Counted from the first letter of the stretch, positions 41,549-45,372 are shown. The stretch: DNA of 64,000 bases from a virus (IMGVR_UViG_3300045988_084189:25423-89422), one strand, 5' to 3'. Numbers and translations are program-made. The notes: generated from the sequence alone by a model not told the origin.

Positions 41549-41692
41549 TTGTGGAGCGAAATGAGCTATAACTGGTATGTGTCGGAAGATACAGAACCAG
41601 AAGTATGGGATAATGAATATGAGCCAACTGAGCGTGATTGGGCGCTTTGGATATATGGTAGTTCAGAGAATGAATTAGAGGTGATTTTTTGA
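41549..41692 (+). CDS. small acidic protein (47 aa) translationally coupled to the RNAP gene
   Basis: TTG 41549 lies 7 nt after AAGGAGGTGG. The stop TGA 41690-92 overlaps the TTG start at 41689. Confidence 0.45.
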   Translation: MWSEMSYNWYVSEDTEPEVWDNEYEPTERDWALWIYGSSENELEVIF

Positions 41693-43569
41693 GCCTACAG
41701 ACGCAAATTTATTTGCATTCAGTGGATACGTCATGTTTTTATGATGACAACGAAATGATACTACATAGACGGCTCGTTCGGTTATATTCGTTGCGTAAGC
41801 GATGGAAGGATGATAGCAAGCCAGATTGGCGCATCAAGTCTGTAAATCGTTTGCTCAAAAAAGAAAAGGCGCGATTATCTGAATTGCTTGATGACGCAGT
41901 GAGTCGAAATGTAACTAGAGAATTGCGTCAAGATGCTGTGACCGATAAGACAGTTGTTAATCTATTTGAATCCGATTTAACGCGCAGCTTGGGCCTTGAG
42001 CCGTTCAAGTTGACTGATGAGTTATTCATCATTAACGTATTTTTCTTTCAAGTGTTTAATAATCTAGTTCATCAAGGGTTTATCTACAATGGCGAAAAAT
42101 ATGTGTTCCTTACTGCATCAGCAGGACAGATCAGAACGAAACGAGCAGTATTCGTTAAAGAATCATCGTTTAAGCGCATTGAGCAAAAATTGATGTGCGG
42201 CTTGACCATAGACGAAATCAATGAGCGGGGAGGAATGAACCAGAATAAATTTCTTGCATATTTGGCGCTTATGAACTCTGCTACAGATGTTTGGCAAGAT
42301 TTCGACATTGACAAATCAATCGTAGTAGATGATTGGGAAACGGCTGTTCCGGGATTGGTTGACCATATTGATGGCGTGTCATATGAGATTCGGCGCGAAA
42401 TGACAGAGACGATTATTCCTCATATGGATGGATGCGGCATTATGCTTGATGAAGCAACAAGAATGGTGCGTATGCCATGGGTAAAGGGATTGCTTGTTAC
42501 ATTTCCATTTGATAAATTTATCAAAGAAAAATGCGGCGGAGAAGCGACTGTAACAGATATTTATGGCAATGAGCATAAAATCATAGAGGAAGATATACGG
42601 TATATATTCACAAAGAGCCAATTCAAGCTATGGAAATTTTATGATTCGTGGGATTGCTACAAGGCTCGATTCAAAAATTTTGGATGTAATGCCTGTTATT
42701 GCAATATAGAGGAGTCATACATTCCAAAGAGCCGCATCAACTATCAGATGCTACAGACATTAAGTGATATGACTGATAATGAGATTGACCGCATCATCTC
42801 TAAGACGGCACAAGAGATTGACGATGTTGGCAAAGATTATCAAGTTACTATGAGGCTACTTGGCGCAACAGAGAACAATCGGTATAAATCAGCTATGCAA
42901 GAGGCGTTGTTGATATATCCTGAGTTGTTCAAGGATTCATATAACCGAGAAATTCTGAAGCAGACTAAAAAGAGTCTAGTTAAGCAAGCCAAGGGTGGGC
43001 GGCTTAGAGTAAATGGAAAATATCTTTTCTTAGCGCCTGACCTATATGCGTTTTGCGAATGGCTATTCCTAGGCGAACAAAACCCACAAGGATTACTTGC
43101 AGATGGTGATGTATATACAAACCAATATCGAGACGAAGAAACATTGGCTTGTCTGCGTTCGCCGCATCTATATCGAGAATGGGCAATCAGGACGAATCGG
43201 CGCAGTTTAGAGCTTGATTATTGGTTTGGTGGGACTAAGTGCATATATACTAGTTGCCATGACCTTATTTCTCGTTACCTTATGTTCGACGTAGATGGGG
43301 ATAAGGCTCTAGTGGTAAAAGATAGAACATTGACAAATTGCGCCAAACGCAATATGCAAGATATAGTCCCTCTAGCATATGATCTCAAAAAAGCCAAGGG
43401 CGGCTTGTTAAATCCAGACAGTATGTACAATGGAATGGTCAATGCTTATACTAAGGGCAATATCGGGCCGGTTAGTAATAACATTACAAAAATATGGAAT
43501 AGTGGTGAAATCACACAAGAAGAACTAGATGTAGTAAAATGGCTTTGCTTCGAGAACAACGCTGTGATT
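41689..43569 (+). CDS. YonO/RdRP-like single-subunit RNA polymerase, exon 1
   Basis: MFDVDGDKALVV (DVDGD at 43288-302) followed by GNIGPVSNN. The frame degenerates 12 codons after ...ENNAVI, once inside the intron. Confidence 0.65.
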
Positions 43570-44679
43570 AAGAATCGGTCACCTTACACAGTAATGTGTA
43601 TGTAAAATCTGGTGAACCTACAAATGTAGGGTGTGCGGTCTATGCCGTGCTAACAGGGAAAGCTAAAATGTTTGTTAAAAGATACTAATAGGGAGAGGAG
43701 GTGCCTATGATGAAATTTATTAACGAACAGGCAATGAAAAATGAGATTGGCATTTATAAGATTTCCAACATCGTGTCCGGACGGGTATATGTCGGTCAGA
43801 CCAAAGAACGCTTTCAAAGAAGATATTGGCTACATCAGTGGGAGTTAAGAAATGGATGCCATGACAATAAATATTTGCAGAACGCTTGGAATAAATATGG
43901 AGAAGATAATTTTATATTTGAAGTAATAGAGATTTTACCACGAGAAGAAATAGATGAACGTGAGAGATATTGGATAGCATATTATCGTGAGAACGGTGGT
44001 TGTTATTGTATTCAAGATGGAGGGCAACCAACAAATCTTGGGAAGTATGTATCGCCTGAAGCTCGTAAGAGAGTTGGCGAAATGAACCGACAACGTATGC
44101 TTGGGTCTAAATTGAGCGAAAAGACTAAGCAGAAAATGGCTGAAATTCGTACTGGTAAACACCCGATTAGAAAGAATGATCTAATGACCGAAGATGAGGC
44201 AAGAACTGTTAAAGAAATGCTCGTTGCTGGTTATTCTAGTGGCGATATTGTAAAAATAACAGGCGTGCCATATAAGGGTATAAACAGTATCATATCAAAT
44301 AATAACTATGCGGCCATTAAAGTTGACGGTTGGGATGAATATATTACCAATAGAATGAAATCTGTAAAGCATCGACTTACAAAAGAGCAGATTCTTCAGC
44401 TTGTTGAAGATTCAAAGAACGGAATGAGCAATGAGGAGTTGGCTAAAAAATACAATGTTGGTGAATGCTCAGTGCGCCGTCATATTAGATTAAATAAATA
44501 ACAAACATCATGCTAATCCTGTGCCAAGCCTCGAAAGAGGAAGGTTAAACGACTATCCTGAAAAGGAGTACAGATGGGGCGAAATTCCCCATTTGGAAGT
44601 GCCAGACCCCTTGAATATCAAGGGTGAAGATATAGTCTAAACCCCTAATAAATATCGGGAAACCGAGGGTATATATTAC
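43570..44679 (+). mobile_element. group I intron carrying a GIY-YIG homing endonuclease ORF (boundaries approximate)
   Basis: P1 is GTGATT (43564-69) with GGTCAC (43577-82). P7 is GACTA (44551-55) with TAGTC (44633-37). The hallmark AAGATATAGTC lies at 44627-37. GAAA-tetraloop hairpins sit at 44556-67 and 44656-65. Confidence 0.75.
43707..44501 (+). CDS. intron-encoded GIY-YIG homing endonuclease
   Basis: GIYKISN...GRVYVGQT...RRYWLHQ motif, NUMOD-like repeats (G.K.SE.TK.KM) and a C-terminal HTH. ATG 43707 follows GGAGAGGAGG. Confidence 0.85.
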   Translation: MMKFINEQAMKNEIGIYKISNIVSGRVYVGQTKERFQRRYWLHQWELRNGCHDNKYLQNAWNKYGEDNFIFEVIEILPREEIDERERYWIAYYRENGGCYCIQDGGQPTNLGKYVSPEARKRVGEMNRQRMLGSKLSEKTKQKMAEIRTGKHPIRKNDLMTEDEARTVKEMLVAGYSSGDIVKITGVPYKGINSIISNNNYAAIKVDGWDEYITNRMKSVKHRLTKEQILQLVEDSKNGMSNEELAKKYNVGECSVRRHIRLNK

Positions 44680-45372
44680 GATTGTGCAAAGACGCAGTGG
44701 TTGCCACAGCGTCCAAAGAGAGTTAATTCAATTATTAAGCAATATACAAAAGCCCGTGTTCCAAATTTCTTTCAATATGCCAAAGACAAAGACCCAGATA
44801 CTCAAGTAGAGTCTCCCAACAATTCCACAATGAATCGTATATCAGCCAAAATCCCTGCTTCCCGCATCCGCTATAATAACAAGATTGGGAAATTCGACTG
44901 GACTATGCTGATAAATAAATCAGTCGATTATACCACCAGAGAAAATTCGCCAATCATAGAGAGGTATAATTGGTGGATGTGGAATCAGCGCAAATTTGAT
45001 TATGGCGATGACCCGCATATCAATGAGGATGATTTGTATAAATATCGCCGCATAGCACAAGATATAGTGGAGTATAGCAACGAGCCACTAGATGTTGTGG
45101 TCAATAGCTTGGTGGCTTATTTATATACGGTCAAAAAATCAAGCAATAAGAAAATGCTGTGGGCTTGTTTTGGTTGGACGATTGTAGAGAATTTGAGAAT
45201 CAATACTGCGCAACTTAATCCAATTTGCCCTATTTGCGGCAAGAGGTTCAAGCCACGCGATGTATGCCAGCATTATTGCTCAGAGGAATGTTATAAGAAG
45301 GCAGATAATCAGCGGCGTACCGAATCGCGCGAAGCCCCACCTGTCCGCACGGGGGATATGTTAAAACAGTAG
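44680..45372 (+). CDS. YonO/RdRP-like RNA polymerase, exon 2
   Basis: The frame reads DCAKTQWLPQRP... from 44680 to the stop at 45372. It ends in a Cys4 cluster CPICG...CQHYCSEEC. Confidence 0.6.
   Translation, partial: DCAKTQWLPQRPKRVNSIIKQYTKARVPNFFQYAKDKDPDTQVESPNNSTMNRISAKIPASRIRYNNKIGKFDWTMLINKSVDYTTRENSPIIERYNWWMWNQRKFDYGDDPHINEDDLYKYRRIAQDIVEYSNEPLDVVVNSLVAYLYTVKKSSNKKMLWACFGWTIVENLRINTAQLNPICPICGKRFKPRDVCQHYCSEECYKKADNQRRTESREAPPVRTGDMLKQ

Follow-up and report, generated by a model that had tools for sequence, protein, structure and literature searches.

A YonO-type phage RNA polymerase gene split by a probable self-splicing group I intron with a GIY-YIG endonuclease gene and a predicted terminal adenosine

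The window analyzed here is a stretch of 64,000 nucleotides (nt) of viral DNA (IMGVR_UViG_3300045988_084189:25423-89422), in which + strand coordinates are counted from the first letter, and the subject of this study is an interrupted gene at 41689-45372 for an RNA polymerase of the type of phage SPbeta YonO. Three open reading frames (ORFs) lie on the + strand of this locus, encoding 638 amino acids (aa; 41689-43605, with a TTG start), 266 aa (43701-44501) and 223 aa, the frame of the last being open from 44650 and reading DCAKTQW... from 44680. An earlier interpretation made without database searches (the sequence-only reading) had seen in them a polymerase gene similar to YonO and to RNA-dependent RNA polymerases (RdRPs), split by a group I intron with a GIY-YIG homing endonuclease gene, and every sequence string that it quoted was found in its place. 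[quoted passage not shown] The phage is uncultured, and its DNA-level match to phage records is limited to a 60-nt intron segment, in that a megablast of the whole region against 50,697 such records matched 44620-44679 only.

The polymerase gene and its interruption

Exon 1 (41689-43568, + strand) begins at the TTG codon, encodes residues 1-626 and contributes bases 1 and 2 of the Ile627 codon, and exon 2 (44679-45372, + strand) supplies base 3 of this codon followed by residues D628 to Q857. Joined, the two exons encode one protein of 857 aa. Beyond ...ENNAVI the frame of exon 1 continues for 11 codons (KNRSPYTVMCM) before it meets a TAA stop at 43603-43605; the polymerase frame resumes at 44680 as DCAKTQWLPQRP and runs on to 45372, which is the loss and recovery of frame described in the sequence-only reading. 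The two parts fit together without overlap or gap on the PHROG 8308 profile (847 positions), where exon 1 covers positions 2-643 (E 4.6e-215) and exon 2 covers positions 644-845 (E 4.4e-24), so that the break lies exactly between the adjacent positions 643 and 644. In alignments exon 2, which has a Cys-rich CxxC...C...C motif at its C-terminal end, covers the C-terminal quarter of YonO and likewise that of every homologue.

The assignment to the YonO/RdRP type, for which a profile search had been proposed, is borne out by a match of exon 1 to the Pfam RdRP family PF05183 (36 bits against a gathering cut-off of 23.8, E 4.5e-9), as well as by an identity of 44.7% between the joined protein (857 aa) and SPBc2 YonO (839 aa) over 96% of the length (tblastn), with similar values across SPbeta-like phages. 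More than 4,000 database proteins match the joined polymerase, and the nearest uninterrupted homologue among these matches has 856 aa and is 94% identical. Also significant is the observation that the uninterrupted homologues found within the 120 best of the more than 4,000 matches, over 100 in number, all read ...NNAVI-DxAKT... or conservative variants of it at the site of the break, with no residue gained or lost.

The metal-binding loop, which had been predicted from its DbDGD pattern, is encoded at 43288-43302 (+ strand) as DVDGD, with the aspartate triad D534, D536 and D538 and with GNIGPVSNN directly following. D534, D536, G537 and D538 are invariant in both protein alignments (A2 and A3, 13 and 38 sequences, SPbeta YonO included), and the same is true of the residues I627, D628, K631 and T632 that flank the break. 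In SPbeta YonO, an enzyme that carries out processive, DNA-templated RNA synthesis and transcribes the SPbeta late genes, this triad is needed for catalysis, the 3D>3N mutant being inactive (PMC5467207).

An AlphaFold2 model of the polymerase, calculated from an input alignment that excluded the SPbeta YonO sequence, has a mean predicted local distance difference test score (pLDDT) of 86.2 and a predicted template modeling score (pTM) of 0.78. A Foldseek search with this model retrieved the maize and Arabidopsis RDR2 proteins and the fungal QDE-1 (E 3.7e-17 to 2e-10, TM 0.45-0.53, approximately 800-940 aligned columns), and bacterial beta' chains appeared in the output with insignificant scores only. 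As judged from this overall match, the modeled protein has the two-barrel (double-psi beta-barrel) fold of the RdRPs. The identity of the polymerase is solid at the levels of sequence, motif and fold.

Fold of the intron and its endonuclease

The segment between the exons (43569-44678, + strand; 1,110 nt) is, on comparative evidence, a group I intron of the subgroup-IA type; to helices P1-P9 it adds P7.1/P7.2 and, in the P3-P4 interval, a pair of extra hairpins. The presence of P7.1/P7.2 places it in subgroup IA, which is the type usual in phages. A covariance search with the Rfam model RF00028 (Intron_gpI) returned 29.2 bits (E 3.7e-5), with P3', P6, P7, P8, J8/7 and P9 aligned within 44386-44660. 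At the Rfam gathering thresholds no intron was reported in the window, and it is the E-value mode applied to the sub-region that alone detects the element, by its 3' core only. The low score is in part explained by the 800-nt ORF that separates the two halves of the ribozyme; an ORF-less homologue at one of the related loci (L008; loci other than the window are designated by such L numbers) gave 34.2 bits (E 3.8e-7).

Related introns were gathered from IMG/VR, JGI metagenomes, GTDB genomes and Logan/ENA assemblies by means of protein matches and of the conserved P9 string, which as a search anchor retrieved 19 related loci. Seven distinct introns were aligned for covariation (alignment A1), the ORF loops of three of them having been cut out by hand. 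RNAalifold recovered from this alignment P1, P2, P3, the two extra hairpins, P4, P6, P7.1, P7.2, P8 and P9. When P7 is added as a pseudoknot, the fold comprises 14 helices with 96.8% of the cells in standard pairs and with compensatory changes, that is on both sides, in 36 of 70 pairs. None of 500 shuffled controls did as well, and when the partners were displaced by 1-3 columns about 40% remained paired. All core helices are thus recovered, and covariation is found in every one of them except the invariant P7. Furthermore, the window intron by itself, with the ORF deleted, folds into the same helices (minimum free energy z = -5.7).

In group I introns the guanosine-binding site is located in P7. 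The 5' strand of this helix, GACUA (44551-44555, + strand), pairs with UAGUC at 44633-44637, and is invariant in all seven aligned introns. The 3' core continues on the + strand as J8/7 (44625-32), the 3' strand of P7 (44633-37) and J7/9 (UAAA, 44638-41), and then as P9 (44642-44669), which is made up of a CCC/GGG outer helix and a UCGG-GAAA-CCGA hairpin. The J8/7 string GAAGATATAGTC is present, and the Rfam alignment sets GACUA and GAAGAUAUAGUC on the P7 and J8/7 positions of the model. The sequence-only reading had proposed a group I intron with this P7 pairing and J8/7 string, all of which holds, although the Rfam score stays below the gathering score; its two hairpins with GAAA tetraloops also exist, but the count is four (P6, P7.1, P7.2 and P9).

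The terminal loop of P5a, the stem of which pairs AUGUUUG (43668-74) with CAAACAU (44502-08), is filled by the endonuclease ORF. Its probable start is the ATG at 43707, giving a protein of 264 aa (43707-44501, + strand), and the Shine-Dalgarno sequence GGAGAGGAGG stands ahead of it at 43692-43701, in agreement with the earlier description of a Shine-Dalgarno-preceded GIY-YIG ORF in a peripheral loop. The protein matches Pfam GIY-YIG PF01541 (32.1 bits, cut-off 22.6), TIGR01453 'group I intron endonuclease' (87.7 bits, cut-off 56) and the PHROG homing endonuclease families, and aligns with the I-TevI catalytic domain (1ln0, E 2.7e-11) through GIY..YVG..R..E; its Pfam NUMOD3 and helix-turn-helix matches are below their cut-offs. 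It also shares 33% identity with a GIY-YIG protein from Bacillus phage BUCT083 that is likewise encoded within a yonO intron. By these comparisons the intron ORF is an I-TevI-like GIY-YIG homing endonuclease. The ORF is intact in three copies of the same length (L021, L027 and L028), and a GIY-YIG ORF of similar length (263 aa) was called in L007. Among the differences between ORF copies, synonymous changes are in excess over the others (31:13 and 23:5), a pattern that marks the ORF as being under purifying selection.

Splice junction and terminal base

Comparison with the homologous proteins requires ...V-I-D-C... across the break, and only two nucleotide joins yield it, 43569|44680 and 43568|44679. 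The latter, which lies one base to the left and leaves the protein unchanged, is most likely the splice junction, as is indicated by three independent lines: P1 and P9.0, each compared with those of the related introns, and the pairing in P10. In the P1 hairpin (43564-43582, + strand), the exon bases GUGAU (43564-68) and U43569 pair with the guide GGUCAC (43577-82). The sequence-only reading had this pairing right but set the splice-site U.G most likely one base too far 3', the wobble pair at the splice site then being U43568.G43578. In six of seven related introns a U.G pair stands in the same alignment column, at position five of GUGAU/GUCAC; the remaining intron is gapped at this column. 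L015 and L022 are especially informative, in that their P1 and guide sequence (GUGAUUGAGAAUCGGUCAC) are identical to those of the window, and their introns have the canonical terminal G (omega-G) in ...AAAUG|UGAUUAU. Since a 5' cut directly behind GUGAU is the only one that brings this end into frame, the 5' splice site is fixed after U43568.

The same intron and the same protein would also result from ligation at 43569|44680, with U43569.G43577 as the splice-site pair and C44679 as the terminal base. U43569 can indeed pair with G43577, and AAUC (43573-76) with GAUU (44680-83). This register is nevertheless unlikely, because the homologous introns at the site all interrupt the Ile codon between its second and third bases and have their U.G one position further 5', and because L015 and L022 would be frame-shifted in it. 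Moreover, we know of no natural group I intron that ends in C. The two registers also differ in P9.0, which is formed by the two bases before the terminal nucleotide and bases 3-4 of J7/9, and which covaries in 10 of 10 distinct introns at the site (AA/UU, UU/AA, AU/AU, UG/CA and CU/AG). With J7/9 reading UAAA and the tail reading UAUAUAUU-A-C, P9.0 can form in the window intron (A44640 and A44641 with U44676 and U44677, + strand) only if A44678 is the last base; in the 43569|44680 register AA would face UA, unpaired.

For the 43568|44679 junction, the P10 part of the guide (AAUCG, 43573-43577, + strand) forms five Watson-Crick pairs with CGAUU (44679-44683) and is contiguous with P1, and the guide sequence pairs across the ligated GUGAU|CGAUU. 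The complementarity of AATC (43573-76) to GATT (44680-83) from which P10 had been proposed is thus real, but the helix is one pair longer and starts at C44679. The omega-A junction is predicted to read GCUGUGAU|CGAUUGUG, with the diagnostic 30-mer AACGCTGTGATCGATTGTGCAAAGACGCAG; the corresponding 30-mer of the omega-C junction is AACGCTGTGATTGATTGTGCAAAGACGCAG. An intron-less DNA allele with the exact exon flanks of the window, from which the Ile wobble base could be read, was not found in IMG/VR, and the close intron-less alleles, all ATA GAT, do not discriminate between the joins.

The last base of the intron (omega) would then be A44678 (+ strand), a position at which G is present in each of the nine further distinct introns of the site. 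The earlier caveat that C precedes 44680 and that omega-G is missing was therefore justified, but the terminal base is most likely this A rather than C. G44680 was tried as an omega-G, as related tails end in G, and was rejected, since the 5' partners that restore the frame end in A, C or G or fall inside the guide sequence, and the conserved Asp is altered. Three further joins, offered as alternatives in the sequence-only reading (43569/44668, 43568/44670 and 43568/44685), were likewise discarded, for they add GIYY or IYY or delete DC, none of which is seen in any of the more than 100 uninterrupted homologues. The case for a nearby canonical G as the 3' end is best made for G44669, which with U43568 adds 9 nt (..NNAVI-IYY-DCAKT..; 30-mer AACGCTGTGATTATATATTACGATTGTGC), preserves both the U at -1 and the G at omega and leaves the frame open and free of stops; moreover, cryptic 3' sites are used by other introns in which omega-G has been mutated by design. 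We consider such a splice site very improbable, as it would place extra residues beside the invariant I627, D628, K631 and T632, and as G44669 closes the conserved P9 helix, leaving no linker, P9.0 or P10, where the relatives all keep 7-8 nt between P9 and omega. G44680, the other candidate, shifts and so ruins the reading frame.

The adenosine is not peculiar to one assembly. The same omega-A 3' end is present in L007, L021, L027 and L028, and with the window this makes five independent assemblies; the base is not a sequencing error. The introns of these four loci differ from that of the window at, in ascending order, 29, 51, 51 and 116 positions (up to about 10%), and the differences are almost all inside the endonuclease ORF (28-105 per copy, against 1-11 outside; for L021/L027, 44 and 7). 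That so few changes lie outside the ORF points to continuing selection on the RNA fold.

These counts also bear on the idea that the intron no longer splices efficiently and that the gene is expressed as two chains, the 638-aa product of exon 1 and an exon-2 product begun at TTG 44701. The missing omega-G would be in keeping with it, and multi-subunit and some phage two-barrel polymerases tolerate splits. Against this stand the lack of a Shine-Dalgarno sequence at TTG 44701, which is the sole start in the exon-2 frame after the stop at 44647, and the position of the split, which would cut an invariant motif in a predicted long helix (residues 610-632). In addition, the ribozyme core has been conserved while the third positions of the ORF diverged. 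The chance that the gene works as two chains appears slimmer still than that of a cryptic G. Equally, in a lineage so diverged that has yet kept the ribozyme, the endonuclease and omega-A, a dead intron in an essential gene seems unlikely. In our estimate it is about as likely as not that the terminal adenosine supports productive splicing in this natural group I intron lineage, and that selection has maintained the lineage in an essential polymerase gene through a divergence of about 10%.

In model introns, mutation of omega-G to A strongly slows exon ligation. The 23S rRNA intron Cbu.L1917 of Coxiella burnetii reportedly has a natural omega-A as well, splices less efficiently and is said to be a "natural splice mutant"; it differs from the window intron in residing in an rRNA gene, in its subgroup and in being confined to a single bacterial species, whereas the intron described here belongs to a phage lineage with an active-looking endonuclease. 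The stronger P10 of the window intron, with its five Watson-Crick pairs, may offset the weak terminal base, and slow exon ligation might delay the appearance of a late-gene polymerase. It should be added that omega-G is a near-universal trait of group I introns and not the basis of membership in the group, and that the window intron aligns helix for helix with relatives that have omega-G.

The proposed course of events begins with transcription of the gene by the host RNA polymerase from two tandem consensus promoters. An exogenous guanosine would then attack after U43568, held in P1 by the U43568.G43578 wobble, and the freed 3' OH of exon 1 would attack after A44678, positioned by P9.0 and the 5-bp P10 (43573-77/44679-83). 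The ligated message, ...GUG AU|C GAU UGU... (V-I-D-C), would be translated into the 857-aa polymerase. The endonuclease, for its part, presumably cleaves alleles that lack the intron, among them that of L010/L011 (94% identical, with the target sequence ...AATGCTGTTATAGATTGCGCTAAGACG...), whereby the intron would be copied into them.

Several observations weigh against this account. The intron has a non-G last base under any junction that restores the conserved protein and, as omega-G is needed for efficient exon ligation elsewhere, splicing here might proceed slowly or go astray in part. The Rfam score of 29.2 bits is below the gathering score of 50, and even ORF-less relatives reach only 34.2 and 19.7 bits; the covariation alignment is small (seven sequences) and was freed of ORF loops manually; and the argument for splicing is one of sequence comparison throughout. 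With respect to the polymerase, there is no solved YonO structure to serve as comparator, and PDB sequence searches with exon 1 or with the 13-sequence profile gave nothing relevant.

Gene neighborhood, related introns and significance

The polymerase gene is preceded by two promoters of the sigma-A/sigma-70 type on the + strand, at 41366-41394 and at 41491-41519. Both have 12 of 12 matches to TTGACA-17-TATAAT and a TG extension of the -10 element, in accord with the two host-type promoters of the sequence-only reading, and the second lies 30 nt upstream of a small ORF that precedes the polymerase gene. Two perfect TTGACA-17-TATAAT promoters face leftward on the - strand (41341-41313 and 41210-41182), and the intergenic region at 41.18-41.52 kb is thereby a divergent control region of four promoters between the leftward and rightward gene blocks. 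The small ORF (47 aa, 41549-41692, + strand) takes the position of yonP, and its stop overlaps the polymerase start (TTGA). An ORF of this kind occupies the same position in SPbeta, phi3T and metagenomic relatives, and the correspondence with yonP drawn here is one of position. Downstream of the polymerase gene are genes for an HU-like protein (in the yonN position), a YonJ-like exonuclease and structural proteins, and the order yonP-yonO-yonN...yonJ...yonG is common to the window phage and SPbeta.

SPbeta yonO, the product of which is 45% identical over its full length to that of the window gene, has the same neighbors as well as an invariant aspartate triad; in both phages host-type promoters precede the gene, which opens the rightward block, but in SPbeta it is uninterrupted (PMC5467207). 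By analogy with SPbeta YonO, and from the synteny, we infer that the joined gene encodes a polymerase that transcribes the phage late genes; the SPbeta-like layout supports this role and does not prove it.

Further features of the region are recorded here. In the gap ahead of the structural genes, an Rfam DUF3800-VIII RNA (48666-48733, + strand) is followed by a 'drum' RNA (48766-48862, + strand), with counterparts at 7384-7449 in L031 and 7413-7479 in L007; this motif may mark the leader of late operons transcribed by YonO-type enzymes. The leftward block contains a full-length RAGATH-33 RNA (25501-25613, - strand, 139.9 bits) between two tRNA genes (24871-24944 and 26155-26227, both - strand), and a further ORF (39814-40995, - strand) encodes 393 aa with a long coiled-coil N-terminus. 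Its positional counterparts in the relatives L008-L010 and L032 have a Pfam T5orf172/MUG113 annotation, to which SNIPE is added in L010 and L032. Directly upstream of the polymerase gene, L007 (369-1001) and L032 (700-1500) have a free-standing, homing-endonuclease-like NUMOD3 ORF, which the window lacks, and in the intron-less L011 an IS605-type OrfB/Cas12f-like TnpB gene (6259-7368) is inserted between the YonJ-like and YonG-like genes.

Split yonO genes also occur in phi3T, SPR, several SPbetaL isolates, Goe11, Goe14 and BUCT083, where they are annotated as yonO_1/yonO_2 or as hypothetical proteins. The introns of phi3T, SPR, Goe11, Goe14 and BUCT083 are homologous to that of the window, with the same P7 and P9 strings and the same conserved motif interrupted, but have their insertion point, GAU|...G|UUC, 4 nt further 3', where the Asp codon meets the Phe codon, and have the canonical G end. 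The phi3T intron is ORF-less, the BUCT083 copy carries the GIY-YIG gene to which the window endonuclease is related, and an ORF of equal length in Goe11 is annotated as hypothetical. A search of the accessible literature for introns in yonO or phi3T found no paper describing them.

Close relatives of the window protein, L008 and L009, have an ORF-less intron at the downstream Asp/Phe-codon site. In L023 an intron is inserted 8 nt upstream, after the Asn codon. Consequently, no fewer than three insertion sites fall within 12 nt of the NN(x)VID(x)AKT motif, one behind the Asn codon, one within the Ile codon and one behind the Asp codon, and related introns occupy each of them; loci recorded at the insertion sites are L023 at about 11060-12225, L002 at 3358-3757 and L008 at 5786-6076. 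Alleles that are intron-less (L010, L011, L032 and L033), that have an ORF-less intron (L008 and L013-15) and that have an intron with an ORF coexist.

Related, too, are the group IA2 introns of Gram-positive myoviruses (Twort, SPO1 and relatives in the Herelleviridae), in which insert ends are about 92% identical to the 3' 60 nt of the window intron (44620-44679; J8/7, P7 and P9), and which likewise have P7.1/P7.2 and an endonuclease ORF in a peripheral loop. These inserts split genes for DNA polymerase (AVP), nrdD (EF5) and the large terminase (Lb338-1) in place of an RNA polymerase gene, and the ORFs in the AVP and EF5 inserts are annotated as HNH rather than GIY-YIG homing endonucleases. 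Their tails reach a G after 7 nt, as judged by position only, the junctions being putative.

The nearest published analogue is in the jumbo phage PhiPA3, where the endonuclease gp210, encoded by an intron in a gene for a virion RNA polymerase subunit, targets the intron-less homologue of a related phage (Birkholz et al., 2024; PMC11620839). In both cases a phage gene for RNA polymerase harbors an intron that encodes an endonuclease. The PhiPA3 polymerase is, however, of the multi-subunit kind and gp210 is an HNH nickase, and the competitive role demonstrated in PhiPA3 is no more than conceivable for the window phage. The arrangement as such, in which a mobile group I intron occupies a conserved position of an essential gene of a phage, is therefore not new, and its precedents in deposited SPbeta-like genomes had gone unrecognized; the apparently unusual feature of the present lineage is its conserved non-G terminal base.

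The junction described here provides a clean annotation rule for a widespread polymerase gene of gut and soil phages, which is reported by gene-calling programs as two or three separate 'hypothetical' ORFs, and the same error of split annotation is present in the deposited records of phi3T, SPR, Goe11/14 and BUCT083. The NN(x)VID(x)AKT motif of the YonO-type polymerases is, furthermore, an intron hot spot, and the coexistence of intron-less, ORF-less and endonuclease-bearing alleles makes it good material for studies of homing and of competition between phages, comparable with the PhiPA3/PhiKZ pair. Should the omega-A prove productive, a rule that is held to be nearly absolute in ribozyme biochemistry would have its second natural exception, independent of the first.

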